64,000 bases of DNA from Candidatus Dojkabacteria bacterium (lineage in GTDB: Bacteria > Patescibacteriota > Dojkabacteria > SC72): positions 31,128-95,127 of the forward strand of contig JAXGOY010000001.1 of the NCBI GenBank assembly GCA_040767225.1, given 5' to 3'. Shown here in pieces: positions 2,537-53,149 of this stretch. The translations under genes and the position numbers were made by a program. Under the pieces are notes generated by a model. That model did not search any database, had not been told where the DNA came from, and saw nothing but the letters and a program-made list of their open reading frames with translations. How positions within the stretch are numbered: the first letter of the stretch is position 1; each line of letters starts with the position of its first letter.

Positions 2537-2538
2537 AT

Positions 2539-3527: not shown

Positions 3528-3531
3528 ATTA

Positions 3532-3837: not shown

Positions 3838-3854
3838 ATTTACATTTTTCTAAA

Positions 3855-11517: not shown

Positions 11518-12462
11518 ATGGATAGTCAAAAGTCTTGTAAAAACAATGAATCTAATAAACATGTACTAATATCTCTTCTCCTTATAATTTTAGGAGTTTT
11601 CTCCTTTTTTCTAGTTATTAAATCTGATGACCTTGTTTTTGCAAGCCAGCCATTAATACCAATAGATGAAAAAATCAGGGAAGTATTATTTCTCCCCGAC
11701 CTATTGCAAGAAAAAGCCTCCTATGGACCAAAATTAATTACTATTCAAAGAGGAGATACTGTTTTTAACACTCTTACTACACTTAGCAATGTATATGACA
11801 TATTAAGAGAGAACAACATTGAGCTTAATAAAAATGATTATGTATACCTTAATACAGAGTATGTAATAAATGGAAGTGTAATAAAGATTGTAAGAACATC
11901 AAACACAATATTTGAAATGCTTGAAGAAATTCCTTTTGAAAAAGAAATTATTGAAAATCCTCAACTTCTAAAAGGAGAAGAAAAAGTAATACAAGAAGGT
12001 AAAAACGGAATTAAGAAGCTAGTATACTTTAATACCTATGAAGACAATGTGCTTGTTAAAAGTGAATTAATTGATGAAATAATAATTAAAAAACCAATAA
12101 AAGAGATAAAGGAGGTAGGAACATCTATGTACTCTCTTAATAATATTGAGAAGAAAGGATACAACTGTCCATTCTGGTATTCAGTTGTGGACTCAGGTCC
12201 ATATACACAAGAAGAAAAAGACTGGCTTAAGTTTATGATGTACTGTGAATCAGGATGTAATGCAGAATCAAATAAAAGTAATTACAAAGGCCTCTTTCAA
12301 TGGAGTCCTTACTGGTGGAATAAACAGTTCGACGAAAATATCTTTGATGGATATGCACAAATTAAACATACTGTAGAAAAATATAGAGCAGGAGAAGCAA
12401 CCAGAAGTAGTCAATGGCCAAGATGTAATGCAAAATATCTTAAAGCTACAGGAGGAAATTAA
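11518..12462 (+). CDS. RpfB-like cell-wall protein: N-terminal TM, G5 domain, C-terminal Rpf-type transglycosylase-like domain
   Basis: TM helix ISLLLIILGVFSFFLVI. G5-like block EKVIQEGKNGIKKLVYFNTYEDNVLVKSELIDEIIIKKPIKEIKEVGT. C-terminal WLKFMMYCESGCNAES...YKGLFQWSPYWW...QWPRC matches the Rpf signature (CESG, Y.GLFQ, W, WP.C). Confidence 0.65.
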   Translation: MDSQKSCKNNESNKHVLISLLLIILGVFSFFLVIKSDDLVFASQPLIPIDEKIREVLFLPDLLQEKASYGPKLITIQRGDTVFNTLTTLSNVYDILRENNIELNKNDYVYLNTEYVINGSVIKIVRTSNTIFEMLEEIPFEKEIIENPQLLKGEEKVIQEGKNGIKKLVYFNTYEDNVLVKSELIDEIIIKKPIKEIKEVGTSMYSLNNIEKKGYNCPFWYSVVDSGPYTQEEKDWLKFMMYCESGCNAESNKSNYKGLFQWSPYWWNKQFDENIFDGYAQIKHTVEKYRAGEATRSSQWPRCNAKYLKATGGN

Positions 12463-14504
12463 CTCTGCCAACTGTAATAATCACAAATATCCTGTGGTAT
12501 CTCACCTAAGAATCTTGACGGTATCTGTGTAGAATATCCCTCCCTGCTTAATCTTCTTTCAGAAAATGTTAAATAAAGCTTTTCCCTTGCCCTTGTAATA
12601 CCAACATAACACAGTCTTCTTTCTTCCTCTAACTCTTCTTCATCAGTAAATGATCTAGAATGAGGAAGTATTCCCTCCTCAACACCAACTATAAAAACAT
12701 AATCAAACTCTAACCCTTTTGATGAATGAAGTGTCATAAGGTTAACATAGTTTCCACTTCCATCTTGATTTTTACTTTGCTCAAGCTCTATAAGATTAAT
12801 CTCCTGCAAAAATATCTCTAAAGAATTATTTCCAAACTTTTGTGAGTATGCTGCTGCAACATTCTTTAACTCTTCAATATTCTCTTTCTTGTACTCTGCC
12901 TCCTGAGAACTATCATCGAACCATTCAATATATTTTGTTTTCTCCAATATTAAATCTATAACAGATAGAACATCTATCCCTTGACTTTCAAAATACAAAC
13001 TGCCAAATAAATCAACAATAGGTGAAAAGCTCATAATCTCATCCATTACAGATTCAACCTTTTTATACACTTTATCAGACATCTCTTCATGCTTTTCTAA
13101 AGAATTCTTTATGCTATATGCACCAACTAAAACCTCCCCTATACTACAACCACATTTTTTTGCAATGGAGTGTATAGCTGCAATTGACTTAGGTCCAATC
13201 TTTCTATTAGGAGTATTCAATACCCTAGTTATACTTAAATCATCTTTAAGATTAAAGATAAATCTCATATAGCTAAGAATATCCTTTATCTCTTTTCTAT
13301 CATAAAATCTAAACCCTCCTACTAGTTTATATGGAATACCATTTTTAAGCATTGCTTCCTCAATTGCCCTTGACTGATAGTTTGTTCTGTAAAGAACAGC
13401 TATATCAACTAAAGATATTCCATTTCTTCTTAGCCTATTAATTTCATCTACAACATACTGTGCTTCATCATCCTGATCTCTTGCTTGATATACAGTAATA
13501 GGGTTCCCCGAATCCTTTTCTGTCCACAGCTTTTTATTTACTCTAAACACATTCTGCTGAATAACTGACATTGCAGCAGATATGACATTACCTGTTGACC
13601 TATAATTCTGTTCAAGTTTAACTACCTTTACATTTTTAAAATCCCTTTCAAAGGACTGAATATTCTTAATATCTGCACCCCTCCATCCATAAATACCTTG
13701 ATCATCATCTCCAACTACACATATATTTCGATACTTCTGTGAAAGAAGTTTGGCAAACATATATTGTGCAGTATTTGTATCTTGATACTCGTCAATTAAA
13801 ATATATCTATAAATATCCTGATAATATGAAAGCACTTTTTTATTTTCAGATAAAAGCTTAACCGTTAAATATATTAAATCACCAAAATCAACAGAGTTCT
13901 GTAACCTTAATTGCTTCTGATACAAAGGATATATATCTGCAACAATATCTTCAATAAAGCCGCCATAATGCTGTGAGAATTGTTCAGGTGAAATTAACTC
14001 ATTTTTTGCATCAGATATAAAGTAGGCAATAGACTCTGGTTTTATTTGTTTAACATCAATATTTTTCTCAATAAGAATATCTTTTATTAAATTCTCAGTA
14101 TCAGTAGAATCACATATGGAAAAGTTTGGCATTAAACCAACATCTCTTGCATTTTGTCTTAAAAATAGTGCTCCAATTGAGTGAAATGTTCCTATAAGAG
14201 GGACATCTTTTGTATCAATATTCAACTCTTTAAGTAAACTGATAACCCTCTCCTGCATTTCTCCTGCTGCTTTTTTAGTAAATGTAACAGCCATTATATT
14301 TTTAGGAGATACATTCTTCTCTGTTATTAAATATGCAATTCTATTTGTAATAACTCTTGTTTTTCCTGATCCAGCACCAGCAAAAACTAGAAGTGGACCT
14401 TCTGTTGTCTGTACAGCAACCCTCTGTTGCTCATTTAATTTTCCCAGTATTATATCTTTGGAATTCACAGCATTGATTATATCTAAGACTGTATACACAT
14501 ACAA
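12459..14504 (-). CDS. uvrD: UvrD/PcrA-family ATP-dependent DNA helicase
   Basis: 681 aa, Walker A FAGAGSGKTRVITNRIAYLI, plus UvrD motifs (TFH, DEYQDTN, VGDDDQGIYGWRGA, YRS). Confidence 0.9.
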   Translation of the reverse strand: MYVYTVLDIINAVNSKDIILGKLNEQQRVAVQTTEGPLLVFAGAGSGKTRVITNRIAYLITEKNVSPKNIMAVTFTKKAAGEMQERVISLLKELNIDTKDVPLIGTFHSIGALFLRQNARDVGLMPNFSICDSTDTENLIKDILIEKNIDVKQIKPESIAYFISDAKNELISPEQFSQHYGGFIEDIVADIYPLYQKQLRLQNSVDFGDLIYLTVKLLSENKKVLSYYQDIYRYILIDEYQDTNTAQYMFAKLLSQKYRNICVVGDDDQGIYGWRGADIKNIQSFERDFKNVKVVKLEQNYRSTGNVISAAMSVIQQNVFRVNKKLWTEKDSGNPITVYQARDQDDEAQYVVDEINRLRRNGISLVDIAVLYRTNYQSRAIEEAMLKNGIPYKLVGGFRFYDRKEIKDILSYMRFIFNLKDDLSITRVLNTPNRKIGPKSIAAIHSIAKKCGCSIGEVLVGAYSIKNSLEKHEEMSDKVYKKVESVMDEIMSFSPIVDLFGSLYFESQGIDVLSVIDLILEKTKYIEWFDDSSQEAEYKKENIEELKNVAAAYSQKFGNNSLEIFLQEINLIELEQSKNQDGSGNYVNLMTLHSSKGLEFDYVFIVGVEEGILPHSRSFTDEEELEEERRLCYVGITRAREKLYLTFSERRLSREGYSTQIPSRFLGEIPQDICDYYSWQS

Positions 14505-14533: not shown

Positions 14534-15721
14534 TTAAATCTCTTTAGCATATTTCTGGTATACCCACCCTGTTTGATCTTTACCCAGCTTAATCTGATAC
14601 CATCCCTCTTCTTTCTTAATTACTGCATAGACCCATCCTTCATCTGCAACTTCCAGCACTTTACAGCTATACCATCTGCACTCTCTAATATTTACATATC
14701 CAAATTCAGGGGATGTAAGCTGAATTAATTTGTTATTTCCTCTAGTAATAGTAAACTGTACATCGAAATTACTTCCTTCAATAACATTATCTGCAGATTT
14801 CATAAAGTAGAAACTCTCTTTGTATTCACCAGGCTTACTTTTTGCCTCCATCTGGAATGTAACTTCTACAGTTTCTCCTGGCTTAACATTAACATTTTGT
14901 AAATGAGTAGGCTTGCTGAAACTTTCCCACTCCATATTAATAGCATGAGGACTTTCTTTAGAATCTACGGTAGAAATGTATATATAGCTAAGGTCACCGA
15001 ACCATATAAAGTCATTTTCATTTTTAATTTTTACTTTTACATCTAATCTATTTCCAACTTCAACTTCTTTTGCATAATCTACTGACACAATACTTCCTTT
15101 GTACTTAAGATGTTCAGTATCAGACCATTTTACTTCTGCAAGTGATGATACAATAGAGCTTCTAAGCTCCCCTGCAGAAACAGAATATGTCATATATGAT
15201 ACCTTATCACTACTTTTCTTTAATTTAAGTTCAACAAATTCCCAATTAGTATTCTTTATTCCATACTTGTATGAAAGTTCTTGTACCAAAGAGTTAAGAG
15301 CTTCTGATGTACGCGGAGCAAGGGTTGTACTATCATCCATTATCCCTATTAAAACAACATTTTGTCCACCTTCTAAGCCAGGGTTTATTCCTTCTCCTCC
15401 CCTTGCTCCTTCATATATATTTCCACTTTTATCTATTAAATAGTTATATGGAATATCATTTAAGCCAAGCCTTGTTACACTGTAGTAGTAAAGAGCTTTT
15501 ATCCATTCATTTGGCTTTCCTAAAAACTCTTTGTTGTATCCTCCTAACTGTGATATATATATTTTTTGAGGCAATGAATACATATCTGCTTGAACTGATA
15601 ATGTTTCATCCATACCAATATCTTTTCTTTTAACAATATCAACTGCAAACACAGACGAAGAGAGAACTAATAACATGAAAAAACTTAAGAAGATTGTAAA
15701 AAGATATTTTGGGAATCTCAT
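14534..15721 (-). CDS. Secreted N-acetylmuramoyl-L-alanine amidase (amidase_2/PGRP-like) with C-terminal SH3b domain
   Basis: Signal peptide. NYLIDKSGNIYEGARGGEG...VVLIGIMDD block typical of family 2 amidases. C-terminal GYVNIRECRWYSCKVLEVADEGWVYAVIKKEEGWYQIKLGKDQTGWVYQ resembles bacterial SH3. Confidence 0.6.
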   Translation of the reverse strand: MRFPKYLFTIFLSFFMLLVLSSSVFAVDIVKRKDIGMDETLSVQADMYSLPQKIYISQLGGYNKEFLGKPNEWIKALYYYSVTRLGLNDIPYNYLIDKSGNIYEGARGGEGINPGLEGGQNVVLIGIMDDSTTLAPRTSEALNSLVQELSYKYGIKNTNWEFVELKLKKSSDKVSYMTYSVSAGELRSSIVSSLAEVKWSDTEHLKYKGSIVSVDYAKEVEVGNRLDVKVKIKNENDFIWFGDLSYIYISTVDSKESPHAINMEWESFSKPTHLQNVNVKPGETVEVTFQMEAKSKPGEYKESFYFMKSADNVIEGSNFDVQFTITRGNNKLIQLTSPEFGYVNIRECRWYSCKVLEVADEGWVYAVIKKEEGWYQIKLGKDQTGWVYQKYAKEI

Positions 15722-15742
15722 AATAGATATTGTATCACACTT

Positions 15743-16759
15743 TTAATATGGTGCTGCTCCTTCCTCCTCAAATCCTTTCTCATACAAAACATCATCTTCA
15801 TCAATTATTCTGGTTGTAAGATAGGAGGGGTCTACTGCACATACAAACATTTTTGTTTTTGTCCAATATGTATCACCTGTTACTGTTATTATTCTTCCAT
15901 CACCAGTAAGTACATATGTTGGAAGTAGGAGTCCATTTCCACTATCGTTAAATATGTGCATTAACTGTATATCATTAGTAATATATTCCTTCATACTATA
16001 CTTTGCAGGATTTTGATAGAACCTATCTTCTATAATAGAAGACCCCAATCTTTTAGGATATTTTGAATTTACAACTAATTTATCTATTGGGGCTAACGGC
16101 AGATATTCATACTTAGTTAAATTATTCCTGTCTAATAAAAGAAGTGATAATTGGGTAATTAAACCTTTATTATTTGTTGTAATAACAAATGCATACCCAT
16201 CTAAATATGAGGACCCCACCTTTATATCATCAAATACATACACTCCTTTATATTCAGTTTTTTCATTTTCTTTACTAGTTTCTTTAAGTTCAATATCATT
16301 AATATCAAAATATTCACTAAAAAAGGTTTTAACATCTTCATCTGATAATATTTTAAAATCTATTGGTATTGTATCAGTTGATGTTATTGTTAATACCCCA
16401 GTAATGGGAGAAAACAGTATAAAAGAATTCTCCTTATACATTATTGATAAGTATTCAGGAATTTCAATATCTGAATTAAGGTTATAGAAGTTGTTAACAA
16501 AAGATATCATTTTGTCAGTATCAAACTCAGAGACTTTAAGGATTCTTTCTTCTTTTGGGATATCTATCTTAATCTTTGATACATCAACAGATATTTCTTC
16601 TTCATCAATAGGATATGGACTTTGAATTTTCTCTTTAGTACTTAAATAACCATCTTGAGTAACTTCTTCCTTAGAGAGAAGTAAGAGTACAAGCAGAATA
16701 GCAAGAAGAATAACTCCAACTATTATATATATTTTGTATTTTTTAAAAAATTCTTTCAT
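15743..16759 (-). CDS. Bitopic membrane protein (N-terminal TM, 310-aa exported domain), function unknown; VirB8-like topology
   Basis: Single TM IYIIVGVILLAILLVLLLLS then a soluble domain. Sits 21 nt from the amidase gene and 5 nt from the next gene in the same orientation. Confidence 0.5.
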   Translation of the reverse strand: MKEFFKKYKIYIIVGVILLAILLVLLLLSKEEVTQDGYLSTKEKIQSPYPIDEEEISVDVSKIKIDIPKEERILKVSEFDTDKMISFVNNFYNLNSDIEIPEYLSIMYKENSFILFSPITGVLTITSTDTIPIDFKILSDEDVKTFFSEYFDINDIELKETSKENEKTEYKGVYVFDDIKVGSSYLDGYAFVITTNNKGLITQLSLLLLDRNNLTKYEYLPLAPIDKLVVNSKYPKRLGSSIIEDRFYQNPAKYSMKEYITNDIQLMHIFNDSGNGLLLPTYVLTGDGRIITVTGDTYWTKTKMFVCAVDPSYLTTRIIDEDDVLYEKGFEEEGAAPY

Positions 16760-16764
16760 TATAT

Positions 16765-19356
16765 TTACTCACATGCACCTCCATTTACCTGGGCAGCAAC
16801 GTCTCTGTAACATGCAGTACTAGTATCCCAACATAGTGCAGCATTGACAGCCTCCTCTGGAGTACAAGCTGATGTACTAACCCTACAACCATATCCTCCA
16901 GCACCCTCTGACAAGTAGTCAGCACCCCATTCTCTTACCATTGACGGACAACTATCTCCTTGAATTTGATGAATTAATTCATGTACAAATAATAAGTAGG
17001 CATATCGATTTGAAGCCCCAAGTAACTTATCTACCTTACAATATACATAATCTAAACCACTATAACACCAAGCCCCATTTATACTCTCACAACCTGGACC
17101 ACCTGGACAAACCACTAATGCAAGTTCTACATAGATTGATCTGCCATATGTCTCAGATACATACTCTCTTGCACGCTTGTAAAGCTCATAAAGGTCATCT
17201 GCTCCCTCCCAGCCAGGTGGTATTATTGGTCCTGGGCTGCCACCACCACCCCCATTTGGTGGTATATAATAACCTTGATTCCCATATGCAGAACATTGAT
17301 TCACAGTATCTGGAACTACATAATTATATGAGAACGTCTTTCTATTCCATTTCTTCCATGATCCAACACTACCACCTAATACAACAATTGCTGCAATAAG
17401 ACCTACAATAGCAACTAACATTATTTGTACAAAAACCTTTGCAATTTTCCCTGCCAAATCCATAGCGATATTTACACCAATTGTTATAGCAATAGATGCC
17501 AGTGGAGTAAGAGCAACCCCAAGTGCACCAGCCACAGCACTTACAAGAGGTTTAATTAAGTTTCGTAAACCACCTTTTGCAACAAACTCTTTTAACATGC
17601 TCTCTCCTAAAGTCTTAGTAATCCAGTTCTTAAGAGCCTCGTTCTTCATAATGGCATCATAAATCTTTTGTCTAGCCTTCTTTAATGGTACATCAAAGAC
17701 CCCCTTTATCCTATCCTCTATCATCTTCTTTGTCCTAGCAGGAAAGCTAAAGATTTTTGTTAAATTCTTAAGATTCTTGGATTGTTTTAGCAGTTTCTCA
17801 ATTTTTTCAAAATCTTTTATTGAAAGAGTCCCACTAGCAAGTTGTGTCTGTATTCCTTCTAATGTTTTACTGATATACTCATTAAGGTCCTTTCCATCTA
17901 AAGCATATATACTATCAATTACATTATCAGCACCAATAGCTTTTCCTAATACTCCAGCTGCACCAAGTCCACCCAATAGCTCTTTTAACTGCTCATTGTT
18001 TTTATACAAACCTCTTGCAAATAATTCACCATTGTAAAAAAATGTCCTAAAGAGTGATCTTGGTGTTGCATAGTAAAGAGCTTCTCCCATTTCGTTATAT
18101 GCATTCTGTACTTTGTTTCTATCTTTCTTAGCAACATATATTTCCACTCCTGGTATTTTTTCTAATGTAACTTTCTTTACAGGAGTTAAATTATTCTTCC
18201 TTGGATCAAAAAAATCTCCATTGAGAATCAATCCAACAACATTGGTTCCTGTTGGACCACCAAGCATCTTTATTGAGTTAAGATATCCTTCCCATTTTCC
18301 AATCCCTGTAAACAAACTGTGTGCACCACCAACTTCTCTTAGTACTTTTTCCTTATCCTTTATTGCACGTTCAATTTCTTTTTTTTCATCTGCAGAAAGG
18401 TTCCCTTCTTTAAGCCTATCCTTTAAAGCATAAGTTTCCTGCTTTATTTTATCAAGATTAATAAGTAGTTTAGTCTTTTCATATATCTTCCTTTGTTCTT
18501 CTTGCTCAGAACCTTCTGGTGCATCCCGTAAAGAATATATTTTTTCTGTAAGATAATTATCTTCAAGCTCCCTATATAGCTCAGGATTGAAAATATCTAC
18601 CTCTTCTCCCAATTTCTTTTTCCCTAAGGCATTGTTAAAATTCTGTACCTCTGTGTCACTATATCTACGAGATAAATATGATTCTATTTCTTTACGACTA
18701 CTTTTTGCTCCAAGTTTACTTGAAAAGTCTAACTTCTCCTGCTCATTCATAGTAAACCAACGATTCCCAAATGTTTTTTGCCCAAGTAAATCTACCGCCC
18801 TATTAGCCACAAAATCTCTCTCTGCATATGAAGCAACACTCTGACCTACTGCTCTTGCAATTTTGTATGATTCTGCTTTTTCATTTGCAGAAGCATTTGC
18901 CAATGCTATCTGTTTAGCTTCTAAATTCCCATATTTATGAGCCCATGCTGTAGTTAAGAAATCATCTATAGCTTCACCAACCATACGAGCTCTTCCAGCT
19001 TTTCTATCTGCTTTTACATTGTTTATTGCCTTTTGAACCTGACCACCAGGATCTCTTAGCCAACTTCCTAAATTATTTGTAGTTAACTTTAAATTTCCCC
19101 TGCCACCAAAGAAATCAACCTGTGCTATCTTAACATCTAAAGCACTATTAAATTCATCAATTAAGGTATTTGAAATAAAGACACCTGGTTTTTCAAGTGA
19201 GGCAAATATTGCATCTGTAAGTGCACTAGAAGCAGATACTCCTGTAGGTGGTTTAACAGGCCTTCTTTTCTCAGGAGGTTTTTCTGATTCAGCAAGTATA
19301 AAATCAATAATTCCCCCTATTGCATCATAATTGTCATTTTTACCTTTAGTTGGCAT
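16765..19356 (-). CDS. Large membrane protein: 600-aa N-terminal domain, TM hairpin, Cys-rich C-terminal HExxH (zincin/DUF4157-like) domain
   Basis: 863 aa. TM pair near ALTPLASIAITIGVNIAM...VFVQIMLVAIVGLIAAIVVLGG. C-terminal 190 aa has 11 Cys, a Gly/Pro run (PPNGGGGGSPGPIIPPGW) and YAYLLFVHELIHQIQGDSCP. Confidence 0.55.
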   Translation of the reverse strand: MPTKGKNDNYDAIGGIIDFILAESEKPPEKRRPVKPPTGVSASSALTDAIFASLEKPGVFISNTLIDEFNSALDVKIAQVDFFGGRGNLKLTTNNLGSWLRDPGGQVQKAINNVKADRKAGRARMVGEAIDDFLTTAWAHKYGNLEAKQIALANASANEKAESYKIARAVGQSVASYAERDFVANRAVDLLGQKTFGNRWFTMNEQEKLDFSSKLGAKSSRKEIESYLSRRYSDTEVQNFNNALGKKKLGEEVDIFNPELYRELEDNYLTEKIYSLRDAPEGSEQEEQRKIYEKTKLLINLDKIKQETYALKDRLKEGNLSADEKKEIERAIKDKEKVLREVGGAHSLFTGIGKWEGYLNSIKMLGGPTGTNVVGLILNGDFFDPRKNNLTPVKKVTLEKIPGVEIYVAKKDRNKVQNAYNEMGEALYYATPRSLFRTFFYNGELFARGLYKNNEQLKELLGGLGAAGVLGKAIGADNVIDSIYALDGKDLNEYISKTLEGIQTQLASGTLSIKDFEKIEKLLKQSKNLKNLTKIFSFPARTKKMIEDRIKGVFDVPLKKARQKIYDAIMKNEALKNWITKTLGESMLKEFVAKGGLRNLIKPLVSAVAGALGVALTPLASIAITIGVNIAMDLAGKIAKVFVQIMLVAIVGLIAAIVVLGGSVGSWKKWNRKTFSYNYVVPDTVNQCSAYGNQGYYIPPNGGGGGSPGPIIPPGWEGADDLYELYKRAREYVSETYGRSIYVELALVVCPGGPGCESINGAWCYSGLDYVYCKVDKLLGASNRYAYLLFVHELIHQIQGDSCPSMVREWGADYLSEGAGGYGCRVSTSACTPEEAVNAALCWDTSTACYRDVAAQVNGGACE

Positions 19357-19371
19357 TTTCTATATACCTAA

Positions 19372-20862
19372 TTATTTACTACCAAACATACCTCCAATAA
19401 GCGGTACTTTTTGCAAGCTCTTTTGTACAGCCTCAAATCCAGCACCAAAACCTTGTTTAGAATCAGGTGGAATGAATGATTCAATAAACTTTGGAGCTTG
19501 AGCAGCGAAGAATAAAACAAAAATCTTTAAGACAAAAATAACAAGACCACCTGCAATATTAGGACCCTCTGCATCGTATCCTTCTGTTTCATATACAAGC
19601 TTTGCTGGTAATCGTAGTTTTGCTGTAGCATCATTTGCTAATAATGCATTTGGTATATTAACTATGAAGAATACAACAGGGAACACCAAAACACTTCTCA
19701 AAACACCTTTCACCCAATTCATAATCGCTTTATTATTCCCAGGTATAGCACCTAATGTAATTTGCAGAGGCCCTAAAATAACTGAGAGTAAAAGCTGAAA
19801 ATATGCTTTAAATAGTGTAATTAATACTTTAATTGCTCCAAATGCTATTATTCCCAATACTATTAAAGCAAAAAATAAACCAAGAGCACCAACAGCTGCA
19901 CCTGTTACCGCCCAACCAATTGGACCAGAAATAAGAGCTCCTAATCCTCCTACACCAGCAAGAATTCCTCCTAAACCAAGTGCACCACCAACTACACTAA
20001 TAATTGTAGCCAACTTAAGTTCTCCAGTAAACACATTAGAGAATAATTTCCCAAATCCAGCTATTGAAGTGGCAGTATCAGAAAGATCAAAAACACTTAC
20101 TATCAAACCTATTATCAATCCACCAAAATCTATAATAAGTCCTGCTATTGCGAAACTAAATGTTGCAACAACTAAAGCAATTATTACATTTGGTAAAACA
20201 TTACCCAATGTAACCATAGCCTGACCTCCTATCTTATGCCTAAACATAATCATAAACCCAGCAATAATCATTACAATAACAAAGAAAAGATATGAAAGGT
20301 TAAGTACATTAGTCCATAATGGCTGTATACCCGCAGCTTTAAGCTCACTATACCCTGACCATGTACCATCCTCAGCATACAGTGCAGTTGTGCTATCTTT
20401 ATACCCTGGAACCCATTGCTGTGCTAAATGATCAGGAACATTCACTAGAGGATAGCTTGCATAAACTGCCATTGAAGCATCATCTATCATCCCTATTACT
20501 CCTCTTCTTAAGTCATATGGAACATTTGCAGCTTCTAGCTTTGCTTTAGTTTCTTCATCCAGAAGGTCCTCTCCACCTAAATAAAGTACACCTGTCCAGA
20601 GCGTTGTTACATTTTGCTGTCCCAAACTTGTTTGAGAGTTATCTTCTGTCTCATCAGCATTATTTACAATATTATGGAATTTTTTCTCACCTTCCCAATC
20701 TGGAGTAATTGTTTGTGGAAGGTCTTCCTGTGCATAAGAATTCAATGTACCAAAAAGCAAAAATATAGTAAGGAAAGACATAAGAGAAACCTTAAAACTT
20801 TTTCTCTCTGTTATCTCCTTCATTTTATTTCCTAAGTTATATATCTTCCTTACATTACTCAT
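19372..20862 (-). CDS. Polytopic membrane protein with VirB6/TrbL-like architecture
   Basis: Signal peptide (FLTIFLLFGTLNSYAQE), a 150-aa exported domain, then 6-7 TM helices. Includes the Gly-zipper stretch VVGGALGLGGILAGVGGLGALISGPIGWAVTGAAVGALG and a C-terminal tail. Confidence 0.4.
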   Translation of the reverse strand: MSNVRKIYNLGNKMKEITERKSFKVSLMSFLTIFLLFGTLNSYAQEDLPQTITPDWEGEKKFHNIVNNADETEDNSQTSLGQQNVTTLWTGVLYLGGEDLLDEETKAKLEAANVPYDLRRGVIGMIDDASMAVYASYPLVNVPDHLAQQWVPGYKDSTTALYAEDGTWSGYSELKAAGIQPLWTNVLNLSYLFFVIVMIIAGFMIMFRHKIGGQAMVTLGNVLPNVIIALVVATFSFAIAGLIIDFGGLIIGLIVSVFDLSDTATSIAGFGKLFSNVFTGELKLATIISVVGGALGLGGILAGVGGLGALISGPIGWAVTGAAVGALGLFFALIVLGIIAFGAIKVLITLFKAYFQLLLSVILGPLQITLGAIPGNNKAIMNWVKGVLRSVLVFPVVFFIVNIPNALLANDATAKLRLPAKLVYETEGYDAEGPNIAGGLVIFVLKIFVLFFAAQAPKFIESFIPPDSKQGFGAGFEAVQKSLQKVPLIGGMFGSK

Positions 20863-20889
20863 TTTTGTATATATATAAAAAGTTATTTA

Positions 20890-22182
20890 TTATTGCGACA
20901 ACGGTATAGCTTCTGTTCTCTTCCCCTTTACTTGAGTCTGAAGAAATTCATTATACTCTCCAGGAGTAGGAGTAGATTCTACATTAGGTACATCATCATA
21001 TTTACTAACTTCCAACTCTTTATACAGATGAGACATATCCCATGCACACTTTACTCCAAAATCTCTTCCATCAATTTTAACAGTACAATCAGTTGTGTAA
21101 TATGTCTTACTTGACGAAGTTGTAGATGGAGGCTTTACAGCATTATTTCTTCTGTTCATATATGCATTTGTACATGCACCACTCTCATCACATCCATCAT
21201 CAGGACCAAAAGGAGAAGCCATTATTAATACAATATCTTCAGCATAGACACAACCTTCCTGATTAAAAAGACATTCATTCCATAAATCATCCGCTATACT
21301 CTTAAAATATGAAATAATTCTACGGCTTAATGATATATGGCATCCCTTAAAAGAAGTCTCCCATTCAATAAATACATCATTGTTTTTTTCACAGCTCTCA
21401 ATTGTTCTCTTCTCCTGTTCTTGTAATTTTTTTTCATTAGGATATCTGTATGTATCATACATAAGTTCGGCTCTTCCATTAGACTTTGTAGGAGTCACAT
21501 TTGATTTATTATTATACTCTTCTCCATCACACTCATTAGTAAGTTTTTTATCTACACCAACCTTCCCTTCTTCTGCAACCTGCCTTTCACCACCAGGCTG
21601 GGCTTCTACAGAATAATCTGTTGTAAATGGTTTATCTTCATCAGAAGGTTTATACTCATCAATTTGTTTTTTAGGAGGTAATTGTGAATTTGCAGTAATG
21701 TCATCAATTTGTTCACCTGCTGCTTTATATGTAGGTGTTTCTGTAGTGATTTTCCTATTTGAATCTGCTACCTCCATCCCAGAGAAAAGTTCAAGAGGTA
21801 CTGTAACAGAAACAAGGTATATCTCTGAATCTTTCTCTACTAAAGTCCCTGTCCTTTTACCCCATTTGTAATCTACAGACCCACTACCACTTTGTACACA
21901 AACCGCTTCAGATTCAATATTTACAGCATTCCCACCACATGAGAAAGTCTCACCAAGAACTTTATTCTCTGCCTGCTGTGTGCTTACTTTTACCTCCTCA
22001 GGCTTAGATGTATCAAGACTCTCAGTTTGAACTTGTGTATTTGCTAATGCTTCCTGTGCAGTTACCTCTTTTATCTCTGGCTCTTTTTTAAACTGATTAA
22101 CAACAAACACCATTAATACACACATAAGTGACATGCCCAGAAGCAAGAGAATTGGTTTTATTTTTTCAATAACCTTTTTCAT
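20890..22182 (-). CDS. Secreted Cys-rich protein, unknown function
   Basis: 430 aa, N-terminal TM/signal (ILLLLGMSLMCVLMVFVV). 18 Cys concentrated in the C-terminal half. 27-nt spacing to the upstream gene. Confidence 0.5.
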   Translation of the reverse strand: MKKVIEKIKPILLLLGMSLMCVLMVFVVNQFKKEPEIKEVTAQEALANTQVQTESLDTSKPEEVKVSTQQAENKVLGETFSCGGNAVNIESEAVCVQSGSGSVDYKWGKRTGTLVEKDSEIYLVSVTVPLELFSGMEVADSNRKITTETPTYKAAGEQIDDITANSQLPPKKQIDEYKPSDEDKPFTTDYSVEAQPGGERQVAEEGKVGVDKKLTNECDGEEYNNKSNVTPTKSNGRAELMYDTYRYPNEKKLQEQEKRTIESCEKNNDVFIEWETSFKGCHISLSRRIISYFKSIADDLWNECLFNQEGCVYAEDIVLIMASPFGPDDGCDESGACTNAYMNRRNNAVKPPSTTSSSKTYYTTDCTVKIDGRDFGVKCAWDMSHLYKELEVSKYDDVPNVESTPTPGEYNEFLQTQVKGKRTEAIPLSQ

Positions 22183-22185
22183 CCT

Positions 22186-23790
22186 TTATTCTAATCCTAC
22201 TATACCATAATTAGGAAGTAAATCTACTTTAGAACCAGTTGTTCCGCTAAGAGCACTAACATCTAATTGTATTTCATCCTGTGCGATATTAAAATCAAAC
22301 TTTTTATCCATTGCTCCCAGAAAACTCCCCTGCAATATGTCATCATCTGAAAAGAGAAAGTAAGAAGAACCATCTGAACTTCTTGCATCTCCGACTACTA
22401 ATGTCCAAGAACCCTGAGCATCCGGAAGAGTAGCAAGATATCCTGAACTTCCTGATGTTCCTTTGCTATCATTATCAATTATTTTAAATATAACAACCCA
22501 ATCAGAAGGATCTGGAGCATTTAAAACTTTACCAGTTCTCATATCAAATGCAGGAGCAGTAGATAATGTAGGCAATGTTGCAACGGAATATTTACTTCCC
22601 CCTTTATCATACACCTTACTCCCAGAGTGTATTTCAAAATAATATGTTGTATTAGGTGATAATCTGTCGCTACTAATATAATGAGAATAATATTTACCTT
22701 TACTAGTAAGAGTATCTCTTGAATCAATCATCTCACTATCTAATCCTGTTTTACTTGTACCATATTTTACATACCCTTCTTCTTTTTCACTTGATCTCCA
22801 TGCAACAACAAAGCTAGTGTCTGTAAGATTAGCAATAACTACACTATCCTGACCTGTTGTAAAAGTGAAACTGCCACTCATACTAGTAGACAAATCATTC
22901 CAAGGGACATCATTTCTTACAATATATACTTCCTCTAAAGGAGTCTCAATTGGATTTGTTGGTTCTGGATTTGGTTCTGGTTCTGGCTCTGGAGGAATTG
23001 GCTCTGCATAAATTGTTTCTCCAAGTAAAACTTCTTTTGGGAAATATGAGATAATTTCCGCTTTGTCTACTGTTTCAATTATTAAATCATTTTTAAGCTG
23101 TCCACTTTTATCAAATAAAGTAGAATAGCTACCTTTTAATACTGCACCTTCGTCTACATCATTTCTTGCTATAACAACAAGGTTAGTATTATCTGTTACT
23201 GGCAAAGAGGTTCCATCCTTTATACTTCTTAAAAGAGAAAGCTCAACAGTCCAATTACCACTCTGGGGAAGATCCACAGATACAGGGTAGCTACTTTTAT
23301 CCTCTAATGTAATATACACAACTGTATCTTTAATATTACTTCCAGCAACAGTACCCAATGCATATGAGGGAACAGGTGTATCTTCCATTACTGAAGCTGT
23401 TGTAAATTCATAAGGACCAGAGCTTCCCTTTGTATATTTCTCCTCATCTGAAACTATGACGAATGAGTATTTTGTTGAAGGTTCTAAGCCCTTTACTTCA
23501 ACATAATGGATTTTCCTTTTTCCATCACCTCTTTTATCAAGCATAGGATTTTGCTCTGTACCGTTGAGCACAGGAATAACATAGCCATTTACAGATTTGT
23601 CTGTAATCCAGCTAATCGTCAAAGAATTCGACCCAACATTAGAAACAACAATGTCATGGGGTGTAGGATCCTCTCCAGCTCTTGATATTAATTGTATCCC
23701 TTTATACACAGCAAAAACTGTTAAAGGAACACCCACTATCAAAATCAATACATATTTAAGCTGTCTTTGCTGATGAGGAGTTAATTTCAT
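22186..23790 (-). CDS. Membrane-anchored protein with two fibronectin-III/PAP-N-like beta-sandwich domains
   Basis: N-terminal TM (YVLILIVGVPLTVFAVY). Blocks SLTISWITDKSVNGYVIP...KYSFVIVSDEEKY and SFVVAWRSSEKEEGYVKYGT...TYYFEIHSG. PEPEPEPNPEP linker. Confidence 0.5.
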   Translation of the reverse strand: MKLTPHQQRQLKYVLILIVGVPLTVFAVYKGIQLISRAGEDPTPHDIVVSNVGSNSLTISWITDKSVNGYVIPVLNGTEQNPMLDKRGDGKRKIHYVEVKGLEPSTKYSFVIVSDEEKYTKGSSGPYEFTTASVMEDTPVPSYALGTVAGSNIKDTVVYITLEDKSSYPVSVDLPQSGNWTVELSLLRSIKDGTSLPVTDNTNLVVIARNDVDEGAVLKGSYSTLFDKSGQLKNDLIIETVDKAEIISYFPKEVLLGETIYAEPIPPEPEPEPNPEPTNPIETPLEEVYIVRNDVPWNDLSTSMSGSFTFTTGQDSVVIANLTDTSFVVAWRSSEKEEGYVKYGTSKTGLDSEMIDSRDTLTSKGKYYSHYISSDRLSPNTTYYFEIHSGSKVYDKGGSKYSVATLPTLSTAPAFDMRTGKVLNAPDPSDWVVIFKIIDNDSKGTSGSSGYLATLPDAQGSWTLVVGDARSSDGSSYFLFSDDDILQGSFLGAMDKKFDFNIAQDEIQLDVSALSGTTGSKVDLLPNYGIVGLE

Positions 23791-23821
23791 TTCATAATGA
23801 TACTAAGAAACAATGATAATA

Positions 23822-24121
23822 TCAATCATTTTTATCTTCTTCTCCTGATTTAAACCCCTCTACAATTCCAGATATTACACTTGCAACTGCGGAAATCCCA
23901 TGCAATGCACCTGTGATTTGTAACACAGGAGTCTTAACGGTATCAATAATCCGATTAACTTCAGAAACAATATTATTAATATCCTCTACAGCTTTGTTCA
24001 CCCCTTTTATAGAATCTCTAGACTCTTTAAGAAGCATTGCTAATTGATACAAAACATAACATACAAAAACTACTAATATTCCAACAATTAGCATCCAAAA
24101 TATAGCAGGTATTTCTTCCAT
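23822..24121 (-). CDS. Small membrane protein (N-terminal TM plus helical domain; DUF948-like), first gene of the operon
   Basis: 99 aa, TM IFWMLIVGILVVFVCYVLY. An AT-rich divergent intergenic region lies upstream at 24122-24204. Confidence 0.45.
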   Translation of the reverse strand: MEEIPAIFWMLIVGILVVFVCYVLYQLAMLLKESRDSIKGVNKAVEDINNIVSEVNRIIDTVKTPVLQITGALHGISAVASVISGIVEGFKSGEEDKND

Positions 24122-24204
24122 CTTTTTATCTCTTAAATTTAAAATATATTACAATTATCGTTATTTTTAATGGTATATGTCAAGTTAAATGATATAATTA
24201 CAGA

Positions 24205-49294: not shown

Positions 49295-50098
49295 ATGAGA
49301 CAGCATGCTATACCACAAAACATTTTAGATGTTGAATTTAAGATTTTTACTAAGTTCACACTTAAAGAATTTGCTTACTTAGGAATAGGTGTAGGCATAG
49401 GAGGAGTATTTTTGTACTTTACAACTAAGGGACAGTTCCCTGGTATTGTAGGTGTTCCCCTGTTTATTCTCTTCTCAAGCATAGGGGTGTTCTTTGCACT
49501 TGTTCCAATAAATGATCAGCCTGCTGACAAGTTCATATCTAATTTCTTCTATGCAGTTAATCGTCCTACTCAAAGGGTATGGCTTAACAAAGAGTTAAAA
49601 GATGAAAGAACTAAACCTGCAATACAACCTGAAAAGAAAAAACAAAAAATATTTGGGGGATCTAAAATTGATCAAACAGGACAGGAGGTATATACTGAAA
49701 GTTCAGAGAAGAAGCAACCTGTACAACAAACTGTAGAGCAAGTAATTCCTTCTGCACAAGTTTCTACTAATGAGAAAATAATAATAAATGAAGAAAATAT
49801 ATCTAAGTATCAATTTAAAATTCAAAGTGTAGATAAACTACCTGGAAATATTAATCTGTGGTTATGTACAAAAGACAATCAGCCTATTCCTAATGTCCAG
49901 ACATATTTAAAAGACAAAGATGGAAAACTCCTTTATGCAAACAAAACAGGAAAGAATGGATACTTTCTTACTAATAAGGAGTATCCTGAAGGAATATATA
50001 ATATTGAATTTGAAGGAGCACCCTTTACAATACCTCCCATAAGTATTGTACTTACAAAAAATATGGGTAAATTACCTTATAGAATAGAAGTAAAATAA
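49295..50098 (+). CDS. Two-TM membrane protein with C-terminal beta-sandwich; candidate VirB3/TcpE/PrgI-like T4SS component
   Basis: TM hairpin FAYLGIGVGIGGVFLYFTT / PLFILFSSIGVFFALVPI near the N-terminus. C-terminal KDGKLLYANKTGKNGYFLTNKEYPEGIYNIEFEG is carboxypeptidase-regulatory-like. Directly upstream of the VirB4 gene. Confidence 0.4.
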   Translation: MRQHAIPQNILDVEFKIFTKFTLKEFAYLGIGVGIGGVFLYFTTKGQFPGIVGVPLFILFSSIGVFFALVPINDQPADKFISNFFYAVNRPTQRVWLNKELKDERTKPAIQPEKKKQKIFGGSKIDQTGQEVYTESSEKKQPVQQTVEQVIPSAQVSTNEKIIINEENISKYQFKIQSVDKLPGNINLWLCTKDNQPIPNVQTYLKDKDGKLLYANKTGKNGYFLTNKEYPEGIYNIEFEGAPFTIPPISIVLTKNMGKLPYRIEVK

Positions 50099-50742
50099 TG
50101 GACGCAAATGCAAGAGCAAGAACAACAGCATCAACACAAGATCACCTTGAAATAAAGGATATTGTAGATGATTTAGTAATTACTAAAAGCGGAACTGTAG
50201 CAATGGTAATCCAAACATCAGCAATTAACTTTGATCTTTTAGCTGAATATGAGCAGGATAGTAAAATATTTGCATTTGCAGGACTTCTTAATTCTTTAAA
50301 CTTCCACATACAGATATTAATAAGAACAAGAAGAATAGATATTTCTAATTATGTAGACTATCTTAAAAATCAAGAGAAAGCCGATATGACACCAGGACTA
50401 AAAAAACAGCTAAACATATATACACAATTTATTCAGAGATTAATTATTGAAAATGATGTACTTGATAAAAACTTCTTTCTAGTTATCCCTTACAACCCTG
50501 GAGGAAGTATGCCTACTGCTAACATATTAAAATCCAAAAAGTCTAAACAAGAAATTGAACAGAATATGCAAATGAAACAGAGTCAACTTTTAGAAAAAGC
50601 AAAAATATTTCTCTTTCCTAAAAGAGACCATATACTCAAACAGCTAAATAGAATGGGTTTGGGAGGAAAACAGCTTACAACAAAAGAATTAATTACAGAG
50701 TTTTACACTATATATAATCCAGAAGAAGAAAGAGGAGAATAA
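50098..50742 (+). CDS. Soluble 214-aa protein, unknown function; N-terminal motif resembles the start of VirB4-family proteins
   Basis: HLEIKDIVDDLVITKSGTVAMVIQTSAINFDLLAE parallels the VirB4 N-terminal segment (DHIVLLEDGSIMSIARIDGVAFELEE). Ends 1 nt before the VirB4 ATG. Confidence 0.35.
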   Translation: MDANARARTTASTQDHLEIKDIVDDLVITKSGTVAMVIQTSAINFDLLAEYEQDSKIFAFAGLLNSLNFHIQILIRTRRIDISNYVDYLKNQEKADMTPGLKKQLNIYTQFIQRLIIENDVLDKNFFLVIPYNPGGSMPTANILKSKKSKQEIEQNMQMKQSQLLEKAKIFLFPKRDHILKQLNRMGLGGKQLTTKELITEFYTIYNPEEERGE

Positions 50743-50743: not shown

Positions 50744-53149
50744 ATGGCAGAAGATAATAAATATCAATCAAAAACAATAGAAGAATTAAAAGAAAAGGAA
50801 AGCTCTCTTACTGAGAATAAGTTTGCCACATTTACACAGGATTTAGCTAAAGACTTAGAACAGATTCAAGAGAAAAAAAATAATGAAAATAATCAACTAA
50901 ACCAGAAAGAAAGATACAATGATCCTGTTGATGAAAAGAAAAAAGAGGTAAAAAAGAATCCAATCCTTAAATTCTTAGATAATTTTATTCCTGAAGAGCA
51001 GAAAACTAAATCTCAGACAGCTGCACAACAACAACCAGTAGAAAGCAAAGTTAGTGAAACTAAATATGAAGGTTTAACACTTCAAGATATAATAGCTCCA
51101 ATTGATATTGAAGTTGACTTTAATCATTTACAAATGGGTGATTACTACTTCAGGACTTTCTTCATTAGTGGGTATCCCAGATTTGTTGGTCCAAACTGGC
51201 TTTCTCCAATTATCAATTTTGAGCACTCCCTGCGAATAAGTACATTCTACTACCCTGTTGATTCTAAAATAATAATGGAAAAATTAAAGAAAAAGATTGC
51301 AGAAATGGAAGCAACAATATATACACAAATGGAAGAAAGAAAAGTTATTGATGCTTCTTTAAAGGTAGCTCTATCTGATGCCCAGCAGCTTCAAGATTCA
51401 ATTGCAGAGGGAACTGAGAAATTCTTTCATTTTGCTATGTATATAACAATATATGCACCTAATAAAGATTTACTTGAAAAATACAGTCGTAATGTAGTAT
51501 CTACTTTAGCTGCAATAGGGGTAACTGCAAAACCTGCAACACTTCAACAAGAGCCAGGCTTCATTAGTACACAGCCATTAGGATTAGACAAGCTGTATGT
51601 AACAAGAAATATGGATACAACCTCTCTTGCTACTACATTTCCATTTGTTACATCTGAACTTACAATGGATCATGGAATTATGTATGGAATAAATATGCAT
51701 AACAAGAGTCTAGTTATTTTTGATAGATTTGAACTTGAAAATGCTAATTCTGTTGTATTTGCAAAATCTGGAGCTGGTAAAAGCTATTTTGTAAAACTTG
51801 AAGCACTAAGAAGCTTAATGCTTGGAACTGATATTATCATTATAGACCCTGAAAGAGAGTATGAAGATCTTTCAAGAGCTGTAGGAGGTTCATATATATC
51901 CTTCTCACAAGACAAAGGGGATAAAATGAATCCATTTGAGCTCTCAGGAGTATATGAAGAAGGTGAAGATGAGTTAAGAATAAAGATACAATCTCTCATT
52001 GGATTCTTTAAGATAATGTTTGATGGACTAAGCAATACTGAAATATCTATACTTGATAGAGCATTAATTCTTACATACAGAGAAAAAGGTATAACATATG
52101 ATCCTGCAACACAAAAGAACCCTCCTCCTATGCTTGAAGATTTATATAAAGTATTAAAGGGAATGGCAGAAGAAGAAGCTCATGACATGGCAAGAAGAAT
52201 GGAAAGATTTATCATTGGAAGTGGTGCTGGTGTATTTAATGAGGCTACAAACTTTGAAATAAATAATTCTTTTACAGTATTTAGTGTAAGAGATCTTCAG
52301 GAAGAACTAAAACCTTTATCAATGTATCTTATGCTTGACTTTATATGGACTGTAATAAGAAAAGAAAAAAAGAGAAGACTTCTCATAGTTGATGAGGCAT
52401 GGTATATGATGCAAAGAAAAGATTCTGCAGAGTTTATGTACTCCATAGCTAAGAGAGCAAGAAAATACTACCTCGGACTTACAACAATAACACAAGATGT
52501 TGCAGACTTTATGCATAATGATTTAGGTAAAGCAATAATTCAAAATGCATCAATGTCTATGCTGATGATGCAAAGCCCTTCTGCTGTAGAAGCAATTCAA
52601 GAGGTATTTCATCTTTCTGATGGAGAAAAAGCTTTCTTGCTAAACTGTGAAAAAGGTCAAGGATTATTCTTTGCAGGTCAAAATCATGTAGCAATGCAGG
52701 TCATATCAAGTGTACAAGAGAACACCCTTATCACCTCAGATCCAAGAGAGCTTGAGAGAATGAGATTAATGGGTGAAAAAGAGAAAAGCATCGAAGAGCT
52801 TTCTGCAATATTTGAGCCTCCTGCAACTCAAATGTCTGTATCTACAGAAACACCAAAGAATAAAGATCTGATAGAAAGAGCTGTAGGAAAGAGAAAAGAA
52901 GATATTAAAGAAATAAAAGAAGAAAGGGAGAAATATCAAGAGGAGTTAAAGAAACGATTAGAAGAACAAGATAGACAACTAAACCCTGATAAATATAACT
53001 CACAAAAAAGTATGGGACAATTAATTGAAGAAAATACTGTTCCAGGGCAAGTAATGAAAGAGAGAAAAGAAATTCAAAAAGGTAAAATGCATATTACCCC
53101 ACAAGGAGTAGTATCTGATGAAAATGAACAACAACCAAAGCAACAATAA
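50744..53149 (+). CDS. VirB4/TrbE/CagE-family type IV secretion ATPase
   Basis: 801 aa. CagE_TrbE_VirB-like block (YYFRTFFISGYPRFVGPNWLSPII). Walker A VFAKSGAGKSYFVK. Walker B RRLLIVDEAWYMM. K/E/Q-rich N- and C-terminal tails. Confidence 0.7.
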   Translation: MAEDNKYQSKTIEELKEKESSLTENKFATFTQDLAKDLEQIQEKKNNENNQLNQKERYNDPVDEKKKEVKKNPILKFLDNFIPEEQKTKSQTAAQQQPVESKVSETKYEGLTLQDIIAPIDIEVDFNHLQMGDYYFRTFFISGYPRFVGPNWLSPIINFEHSLRISTFYYPVDSKIIMEKLKKKIAEMEATIYTQMEERKVIDASLKVALSDAQQLQDSIAEGTEKFFHFAMYITIYAPNKDLLEKYSRNVVSTLAAIGVTAKPATLQQEPGFISTQPLGLDKLYVTRNMDTTSLATTFPFVTSELTMDHGIMYGINMHNKSLVIFDRFELENANSVVFAKSGAGKSYFVKLEALRSLMLGTDIIIIDPEREYEDLSRAVGGSYISFSQDKGDKMNPFELSGVYEEGEDELRIKIQSLIGFFKIMFDGLSNTEISILDRALILTYREKGITYDPATQKNPPPMLEDLYKVLKGMAEEEAHDMARRMERFIIGSGAGVFNEATNFEINNSFTVFSVRDLQEELKPLSMYLMLDFIWTVIRKEKKRRLLIVDEAWYMMQRKDSAEFMYSIAKRARKYYLGLTTITQDVADFMHNDLGKAIIQNASMSMLMMQSPSAVEAIQEVFHLSDGEKAFLLNCEKGQGLFFAGQNHVAMQVISSVQENTLITSDPRELERMRLMGEKEKSIEELSAIFEPPATQMSVSTETPKNKDLIERAVGKRKEDIKEIKEEREKYQEELKKRLEEQDRQLNPDKYNSQKSMGQLIEENTVPGQVMKERKEIQKGKMHITPQGVVSDENEQQPKQQ

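Follow-up and report, generated by a model that had tools for sequence, protein, structure and literature searches.

Chromosomal type IV secretion systems (T4SS) have already been described from Patescibacteria. In Southlakia epibionticum the T4SS (SEML1_0005-0019), which includes hydrolases beside virB4, is essential for epibiotic growth (PMC10633639, Wang et al. 2023; PMC12102498). The survey of Patescibacterial T4SS covered +/-20 coding sequences (CDS) around virB4 (PMC12102498, Quinonero-Coronel et al. 2025); VirB6 was undetectable by hidden Markov models in several classes, and VirB6 and VirB8 were largely undetectable in some classes (PMC12102498). Here we analysed a block of seven minus-strand genes, g7 to g1, in a stretch of 64,000 nucleotides from Candidatus Dojkabacteria bacterium (assembly GCA_040767225.1, contig JAXGOY010000001.1, positions 31,128 to 95,127). 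The whole stretch is called the window, and all coordinates refer to it. We read the block as the channel and wall-processing half of a Patescibacterial monoderm-type (MPF_FATA-like) T4SS, split from a PrgI-VirB4 module 25 kb away beside recF, and put the probability of this reading at about one half.

In the suggested model g4 would be a VirB6/DotA-like polytopic channel subunit. The g3 protein, always found with g4, would have an anchor of two or three transmembrane (TM) helices, a large helical domain in the cytoplasm and a zinc peptidase head outside, and this head may open the peptidoglycan so that the machine spans the wall, or may attack the wall of a partner cell. The g2 protein would be the cognate partner of the head; on the pattern of YpeB-SleB and the PepSY propeptides, it would most likely hold or chaperone the peptidase before its use. 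The products of g1 (a dead PGRP-like domain, an Ig-like domain and SH3b), g6 (FN3), g5 (disulfide-rich) and g7 would be wall-binding or surface components, and VirB4 would energise the machine. A large part of uncultivated bacterial diversity belongs to the Patescibacteria, and the T4SS is essential for host-attached life in the one genetically tractable member. In several classes the VirB6, VirB8 and VirB1 parts escaped the published surveys, and the locus offers concrete candidates for Dojkabacteria. It would also show that such a machine can be split across the chromosome, and its peptidase-plus-partner cassette gives a testable handle on the cutting of the wall, the cell's own or the host's, and possibly on host specificity.

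The conserved block and the candidate channel protein g4

The genes of the block are the following, in the order of transcription:

23822..24121, minus strand: g7, 99 residues; small membrane protein with an N-terminal TM segment, a charged helix and a second weakly hydrophobic segment; DUF948/YoxC-like.
22186..23790, minus strand: g6, 534 residues; bitopic, two FN3-like domains (residues 43-128 and 318-392) and a Pro/Glu-rich linker.
20890..22182, minus strand: g5, 430 residues; signal-anchored, with a Cys-rich ectodomain.
19372..20862, minus strand: g4, 496 residues; polytopic (~9 TM) candidate VirB6/DotA-like channel protein with a conserved core at residues 160-496.
16765..19356, minus strand: g3, 863 residues.
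17551..19356, minus strand: N-terminal domain of g3 (g3N, residues 1-602); conserved, Cys-free, helical, without signal peptide, probably cytoplasmic.
17353..17550, minus strand: membrane segment of g3 (residues 603-668); two or three TM helices by hydropathy, the number being uncertain.
16768..17352, minus strand: C-terminal ectodomain of g3 (residues 669-863), the swappable head; Cys-rich, HExxH zincin-like, HELIH at 16969-16983.
15743..16759, minus strand: g2, 338 residues; bitopic, YycI/YycH/PepSY-like ectodomain; the partner co-swapping with the g3 ectodomain.
14534..15721, minus strand: g1, 395 residues; PGRP/amidase_2-like domain (residues ~40-165) without zinc ligands, an Ig-like domain and SH3b (residues 342-392).

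An earlier note on this DNA, made from the sequence alone, had described seven minus-strand genes with spacers of 3-31 nucleotides. The open reading frame (ORF) list of the window confirmed all seven with exact coordinates, and the gaps from g7 to g1 are, in order, 31, 3, 27, 15, 5 and 21 nucleotides; short intergenic gaps are the rule across this compact genome. The same note had the cluster headed by an amidase, but the amidase-like gene, g1, is the last of the block. According to hydropathy all seven products are envelope proteins, with one N-terminal TM segment each in g6, g5, g2 and g1. In public sources the seven proteins are called hypothetical, g7 being named YoxC or hypothetical, and the g4 homologues are assigned to Candidatus Dojkabacteria (WS6), a class of Patescibacteria (candidate phyla radiation).

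A g4 relative is encoded in 298 species-representative genomes according to our scan, from which 80 loci were kept for comparison (individual loci are given below as L numbers). The absence of conserved synteny in related genomes had been named as a refutation, but synteny proved to be strongly conserved: in about 65 of the 80 loci, all from species-level Dojkabacteria genomes, the order g7-g6-g5-g4-g3-(g2)-g1-uvrD was kept in the same orientation, down to 31% g4 identity. In all loci g1 directly follows g2 and uvrD follows the block. The g2 slot always holds an ORF of 320-350 residues, even where BLAST fails; g7 was found in 60 related loci and g6 was conserved in 62. The block thus belongs to the chromosomal core of essentially all Dojkabacteria sampled, and the expectation of a conserved, co-directional set of envelope proteins was borne out.

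Since the housekeeping flanks are conserved too, synteny by itself is weak evidence, and the block might be nothing else than seven functionally unrelated envelope genes, adjacent only through gene-order conservation in small genomes. This appears most improbable. All seven of the products are envelope proteins, the g3 head and g2 co-vary (see below), and g4-g3 and g4-g3-g2 are found again as sub-blocks elsewhere in the genome. A paralogous pair lies near dnaA/rnpA/yidC in some Dojkabacteria and relatives (L008, L080, L082, L084, L085, L088, L089; at ~9-14 kb in each locus). It consists of a g4-like gene (590-850 residues, sometimes tandem) followed by a g3N-like gene (620-770 residues), it is preceded by an ORF of ~235 residues, and a PilM-like gene is found on the other strand. 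The g3N-like proteins of the paralogous loci match g3N at E values of 1e-7 to 1e-19, and no peptidase head was detected in the dnaA-proximal ones. In other genomes a g5?-g4-g3-g2 set, g5 being doubtful, is located between queA and the RNase Y gene. The recurrence of these pairs and of this set elsewhere indicates that the genes travel as a unit.

Structures were predicted for two proteins of the block, g4 and g2. The g4 protein has about nine hydrophobic segments, five or more TM segments being expected of VirB6/TrbL proteins, and its AlphaFold2 model is all-helical. VirB6 and DotA were the best structural matches of this model, and T4SS channel proteins ranked first with two structure-comparison methods. 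Pfam and NCBIfam, including the VirB6/TrbL profile (PF04610), gave no match for g4 or for 10 distant relatives. Of the VirB6/TrbL-like character claimed earlier, the polytopic nature and a modest fold similarity to VirB6/DotA stood, while the profile match failed.

A search of 1.84 billion cluster representatives with the g4 family profile recovered 3347 at E<=1e-3, and with more than 3000 representative proteins recovered the profile could serve the re-annotation of T4SS loci across the phylum. In Dojkabacteria loci g4 and VirB4 are more than 10 kb apart; elsewhere family members adjoin T4SS pilin, PrgI and TraC-like genes and, in one case, type IV pilus (T4P) genes. A distant member follows arrays of TrbC/T4SS_pilin genes in L007 and L091. 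In L091 and L092 a 984-residue protein (helical N-terminus, TM segments, C-terminal M23) is followed by a bitopic protein of 334 residues and then by PrgI and a TraC-like gene, which in L091 comes after PrgI, and in L096 an M23 protein of 1002 residues is encoded near the g4-family gene. The 984-residue and 334-residue proteins of L091 were considered as homologues of g3 and g2 and were rejected, as no homology was detectable and the likeness is one of architecture only.

A VirB4-family ATPase module had been placed at 49.3-53.1 kb, and its presence at 49295-53149 was confirmed by the Pfam matches:

49295..50098, plus strand: PrgI/VirB3-like protein, 267 residues (Pfam PrgI 8.7e-9), directly after recF.
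50098..50742, plus strand: ORF of 214 residues between PrgI and VirB4, which is the TrsD/TraC-like position of other Patescibacteria (a likeness in position only).
50744..53149, plus strand: VirB4-family ATPase, 801 residues (Pfam P-loop_TraG 2.8e-26, AAA_10, CagE_TrbE_VirB 1.4e-3), presumed energiser.

No Pfam match was obtained for the 214-residue ORF. VirB4 with a VirB3/PrgI partner, the combination expected of an MPF_FATA-type T4SS, is present in the window. The module is 25 kb and about 25 genes away from the block, and there is no VirB6 beside it. The succession of recF and PrgI-VirB4 (48170-50098) is the same as in Southlakia epibionticum, where recF (SEML1_0003) stands beside the T4SS cluster, and this common adjacency suggests an ancient origin-proximal placement of the ATPase module.

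Several observations weigh against the assignment of the block to a T4SS. The structural matches of g4 are modest (Foldseek E ~0.08, TM-score 0.39, pLDDT of the model 70). None of the seven proteins has a sequence-level match to T4SS profiles in Pfam, NCBIfam, PHROGs or PDB sequences, the orthologues of the block proteins matched no T4SS family in Pfam, NCBIfam or PHROGs, and the Pfam searches proposed earlier (TrbL/VirB6, VirB8, DUF4157) likewise returned nothing for any protein. The profiles of g2, g4, g5 and the HExxH head found no match among PDB sequences. The hhalign comparisons of the family profiles with PrgH/K/L/D of pCF10 and Orf13-15 of Tn916, including that of g4 with PrgH and Orf15, were negative, and tblastn with g4 and g3 found no match in 72,556 plasmids. 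VirB4/PrgI was never found within 10 kb of the block in the 80 related loci, and no type IV coupling protein (T4CP), relaxase or VirB2-like pilin was present among the window ORFs scanned with Pfam. To these are added the lack of detectable homology between g3/g2 and the L091 proteins, the T4P genes around the g4-family member in L095, the PilM-like gene that adjoins the dnaA-proximal paralogues, and the ambiguous number and orientation of the TM helices of g3, which has positive charges on both sides. Finally, the flanks (rsmE/rsmB, uvrD) are as conserved as the block, and general synteny explains part of its conservation.

The distance of VirB4 and the missing T4SS sequence signature (Pfam, NCBIfam) would also suit a wall-remodelling or surface complex that works independently of any T4SS, for example one controlling an endopeptidase in growth or division like FtsEX-PcsB or the YycH/YycI regulators, with g4 as a mere polytopic scaffold. 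M23 endopeptidases and YycH/YycI-like regulators are classical parts of wall homeostasis, and housekeeping genes surround the block, which probably shares a transcript with uvrD. We nevertheless hold this explanation to be unlikely, as T4SS channel proteins came first for g4 with both structure-comparison methods, g4-family genes sit in T4SS pilin and PrgI loci of other lineages, and the frequent horizontal swapping of the g3 head would be unusual for a housekeeping division enzyme.

The occurrence of a g4-family gene among PilB, PilT, PilC, prepilin peptidase and PilM genes in L095, together with the PilM_2 gene neighbouring the dnaA-proximal paralogues, raises the question whether the family and its partners form part of the T4P apparatus of Patescibacteria instead of a T4SS. 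This is very improbable: known T4P components are without such a fold and the best structural matches of g4 are VirB6 and DotA, the other contexts carry T4SS (VirB2-type) pilins and PrgI, and T4P genes are absent near the block in the window.

The g3 head and g2 as a jointly exchanged cassette

In the alignments the first ~600 residues of g3 are conserved, helical, free of Cys and without a signal peptide, and they match no known family. They are followed by the hydrophobic stretch (residues 603-668). All 11 Cys are located after residue 687, within the C-terminal ~195 residues, and HELIH is found at residue 792, in agreement with the C-terminal HExxH Cys-rich domain predicted before. On these sequence grounds the N-terminal domain would be cytoplasmic, the head would lie outside, and the head is a putative peptidase.

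Two head classes were distinguished among 62 orthologues of g3, M23 in 45/62 and HExxH in 17/62, the window copy belonging to the latter. Motifs alone assigned 33/62 heads to M23 and 17/62 to HExxH and left 12/62 in neither class; these 12 were put in M23, since those tested match Pfam M23 and all 12 cluster with the M23 heads. The M23 heads carry HxxxD...HLHxE. The Pfam M23 match of the L003 g3 has an E value of 2e-9, and the g3 family profile matches M23 structures at 7.7e-5. The HExxH head is compact, with an invariant HELxHQ...EWGAD and conserved Cys, and the head in the window has no M23 match and carries HELIH...EWGAD instead. No Pfam family and no PDB sequence matched the HExxH heads, except for a weak Peptidase_M1 active-site match (0.02-0.03). 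DUF4157 (PF13699) was tried as a family for them and was discarded after 9 HExxH-type heads had shown no match at E<=10.

When proteins were clustered at 90% identity, the g3 of the window stood alone, while the g1 cluster had 162 members and the g2 cluster 90 from the same sources; g3 may be more variable between close strains.

The g2 protein has one TM segment at residues 4-35, which appears in the model as a helix at 9-29 and is followed by beta-rich domains. The model is confident and matches YycI (9.8), YycH (8.0), the PepSY-containing C-domain of YpeB (7.6) and the propeptides of fungalysin (6.6) and vibriolysin (4.9); the similarity to the YycH/YycI/PepSY regulators spans most of the ectodomain. 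VirB8, PrgL, TraM and TcpC were not among the 60 matches listed for the model. At the sequence level g2 gave no Pfam PepSY match, and the homologue search with the g2 alignment brought in nothing beyond 23 close relatives already found. The protein had been described as VirB8-like, and what is left of this is the bitopic topology, since the fold is of the YycI/YycH/PepSY-YpeB type and not NTF2, and no VirB8 or TpcC profile matched.

How far g2 has diverged depends on which class the g3 head belongs to and not on phylogeny. Between genomes matched for the divergence of g4, g1 and g3N (45-55% identity), g2 was 41% identical within the same head class versus 19% between classes, and the effect of 'same class' in the regression was +0.14 for g2 and about 0.00 for g4, g1 and g3N. 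The comparison of L027 with L034, close genomes of different class, gave a DNA identity of 80-90% over g4, the N-part of g3, g1 and uvrD, versus ~50% from just past the TM region of g3 to the end of g2. The HExxH loci are scattered over at least 6 places on the g4+g1+g3N tree, and their g2 proteins form a single clade. The g2 proteins of both classes are still homologous (best cross-class E=3e-14) and constant in size. Thus the g3 head and g2 have been exchanged together, repeatedly, by recombination with sharp breakpoints, and this joint exchange argues for a specific physical or functional pairing of the two.

Judged by its fold, g2 may hold or inhibit the peptidase in the manner of PepSY/YpeB, and its co-replacement with the head is indirect evidence that it may bind and control its partner enzyme. 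YpeB was reported to keep the hydrolase SleB inactive (bioRxiv 10.64898/2026.06.01.729290).

As a separate observation, L040 and L022 form a mosaic in which the DNA of g1 and uvrD is 87-99% identical and that of g4 and the N-part of g3 only 50-70%, which means that recombination is not confined to the g3-head/g2 cassette.

The joint exchange also brings to mind a polymorphic effector-immunity pair, in which the g3 head, as a weapon or an enzyme that breaches the host wall, is aimed at a partner or competitor cell and g2 protects the wall of the producer. The cluster would then serve mainly host attack and host range, with or without delivery by a T4SS, and this explanation overlaps with the T4SS model. 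A conserved N-terminus, a variable C-terminal enzymatic domain exchanged with the immediately downstream gene at sharp breakpoints, and the movement of the cassette between lineages at least 6 times would all be expected of it, and the extracytoplasmic domain of g2 could neutralise a wall-active enzyme. Immunity proteins of different toxin folds are, however, normally unrelated, and g2 of the two classes is homologous and of constant size. Moreover, only two head classes and no orphan cassettes downstream were found, g3 has TM segments and no recognised trafficking domain, and the locus is a core chromosomal set. We therefore think this explanation rather unlikely. The same degree of reserve applies to a speculation that goes further: the head and g2 may be a mobile 'key-and-guard' cassette, in which the head of the T4SS-associated membrane protein suits the peptidoglycan chemistry of a host or prey cell, the PepSY/YycI-like guard protects the wall of the epibiont, and swapping shifts the host range. 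If true, the cassette would determine host specificity in episymbiotic Patescibacteria, and a secretion machine would contain an enzyme-inhibitor polymorphism of a new kind.

Other genes of the block and the surrounding window

The VirB1-like role proposed for the amidase was not upheld. In g1 Pfam detected SH3_3 (2.5e-5) and Amidase_2 at only 0.011; the latter is weak and below the Pfam cut-off, also in 3/5 orthologues (0.004-0.011). The g1 family profile matched SH3b (6e-8) and PGRP (3e-5) structures in PDB. With T7 lysozyme hhalign gave E=1.3e-3 at a probability of only 18%, the alignment spanning the domain core only. The zinc ligands of such amidases are His, His and Cys, the first being His18 in full T7 lysozyme with Met1 counted. 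Among 33 orthologues the N-domain of g1 has no invariant or near-invariant His/Cys, and none is conserved at the ligand positions. By manual inspection beyond the aligned core, the first position is Ser/Gln, and the C-terminal stretch expected to provide the other two (...TNWEFVELKLKK...) contains no His or Cys. Since the ligand residues are not conserved, an active amidase was rejected and a VirB1-like catalytic role is unlikely; g1 probably binds the wall and does not act as an enzyme.

The pair of FN3-like domains foreseen in the 534-residue protein was found in g6 (Pfam Pur_ac_phosph_N 3.5e-17 and fn3 1.9e-11, two stretches each). The Cys-rich nature attributed to the 430-residue protein also holds, as g5, which has a single TM segment, contains 12 Cys, with 10 Cys invariant across the family alignment; it matches no Pfam, PDB or PHROG family. 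The DUF948 match of g7 (E=4.6e-5) is below the Pfam cut-off. In many lineages there are an extra 3-4 kb between rsmE and g7 (L003/L004 at 1830-4700; L030, L038, L041-L046 and others), and in L003 this stretch encodes an additional FN3/Pur_ac_phosph_N protein of 956 residues, so the FN3 component of the block seems expandable.

The features at the two ends of the block are as follows; upstream of it rsmE and rsmB are divergent:

24154..24183, minus strand: promoter-like site TTGACA-18-GATAAT in the 83-nucleotide gap between g7 and the divergent rsmE.
12459..14504, minus strand: uvrD-type helicase (Pfam UvrD-helicase 2.4e-91), 29 nucleotides downstream of g1.

The promoter-like site has the best score in the region (11/12), being a consensus match only, and the total number of such sites is not above that of shuffled sequences. 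No terminator-like site was found in any intergenic gap of the block, including the 29-nucleotide gap between g1 and uvrD, so the spacing alone does not delimit the unit, and judging from these signals the transcript probably runs on into uvrD. The latter is a housekeeping neighbour and stands outside the apparatus.

Some further regions of the window were noted. Several membrane and surface proteins, small or unannotated, are encoded in a row just upstream of lepA-recF-PrgI-VirB4 (42299-46299). They have 584 residues (2 TM), 131 residues (FN3; 44037-44432), 159 residues, 193 residues (4 TM) and 184 residues, and none of them has a T4SS pilin signature. A membrane protein of 337 residues (60698-61711, minus strand) has a weak CD1107-like match (a mobile-element family associated with MPF_FATA T4SS), with E=9e-4 below the cut-off, and it adjoins a SpaA/DUF11/SdrD-B-type surface protein of 607 residues (61904-63727, minus strand). 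These two and the sortase at 32515-33309 (plus strand) may together make up a set for a surface fibre or an adhesin assembled by sortase. YceG/MltG-like (1e-73) and LytR-CpsA-Psr (2e-38) wall-assembly genes are located at 38830-41295, between the block and the VirB4 module, and with the G5-domain protein at 11518-12462 they make this a genome region rich in wall-related functions.

Comparison with described systems

Phage tape-measure proteins, for example T5 Pb2, carry TM segments and C-terminal M23 domains. The likeness to g3 is of architecture only, namely a long helical protein that has hydrophobic segments and ends in a muralytic head of the M23 type, but there are no tail genes in the locus. 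An origin from a phage tail or tape-measure protein was rejected, as the only PHROG matches were to the M23 domain of one orthologue.

With the polymorphic toxin/immunity cassettes (CdiA-CT/CdiI, Rhs-CT, LXG) g3 shares the conserved N-terminal body and, at the C-terminus, an enzymatic domain whose replacement takes in the following gene and has sharp breakpoints. It differs from them in that the heads belong to only two classes, both peptidases, and g2 is homologous across the classes; g3 also has no known trafficking domain, orphan modules are missing and the locus belongs to the core genome.

The pairing of the g3 head with g2 recalls YpeB-SleB of Bacillus spore cortex lysis and the PepSY propeptides of M4/M36 metalloproteases. 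Here the partner of g2 is an M23 peptidase or a small HExxH zincin and not SleB or an M4 protease, g2 is without a Pfam PepSY match, and inhibition by g2 is suggested by the analogy.

The Gram-positive conjugative T4SS cores (PrgH to PrgL of pCF10 and Orf16-15-14-13 of Tn916) share the monoderm envelope logic. In Tn916 the order Orf15-14-13, that is a VirB6-like protein, a large wall hydrolase and a bitopic protein (200-340 residues), is mirrored by g4-g3-g2, and PrgH/PrgK/PrgL of pCF10 follow the same order, but with PrgI and PrgJ intervening between PrgH and PrgK. PrgK has 871 residues versus 863 in g3. PrgK and Orf14 are anchored N-terminally and are fully extracellular, with SLT/CHAP/NlpC-P60 domains, whereas in g3 an N-terminal domain of 600 residues lacks a signal peptide and the putative metallopeptidase is C-terminal. 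In contrast to PrgL and Orf13, g2 is not NTF2-like, and sequence homology to g4-g3-g2 is undetectable. Unlike these systems, the block is chromosomal and lies off mobile elements, and no relaxase was found.

The closest counterparts are the chromosomal MPF_FATA-like T4SS of Patescibacteria. Both have VirB4 with a PrgI/VirB3 partner beside recF, a polytopic VirB6-like protein of very divergent sequence, and membrane proteins that are large and unannotated. Peptidoglycan hydrolases and Ig/FN3-type exported proteins are likewise part of the system, and no relaxase or coupling protein is encoded nearby, here among the window ORFs scanned with Pfam. The Dojkabacteria window differs by having two loci about 25 genes apart, which is outside the +/-20 CDS of the survey, and by lacking a VirB2-like pilin array. 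The bitopic g2 is YycI/PepSY-like, versus the NTF2-like SEML1_0012 of Southlakia, and the putative g3 hydrolase, a metallopeptidase anchored by TM helices, has a swappable head and is not of the lysozyme type. In the literature searchable to us, four features appear to be undescribed: the splitting of the system into two loci, the profile of the divergent VirB6-like family, the TM-anchored peptidase whose two heads are interchangeable, and its co-swapped YycI/PepSY-like partner.

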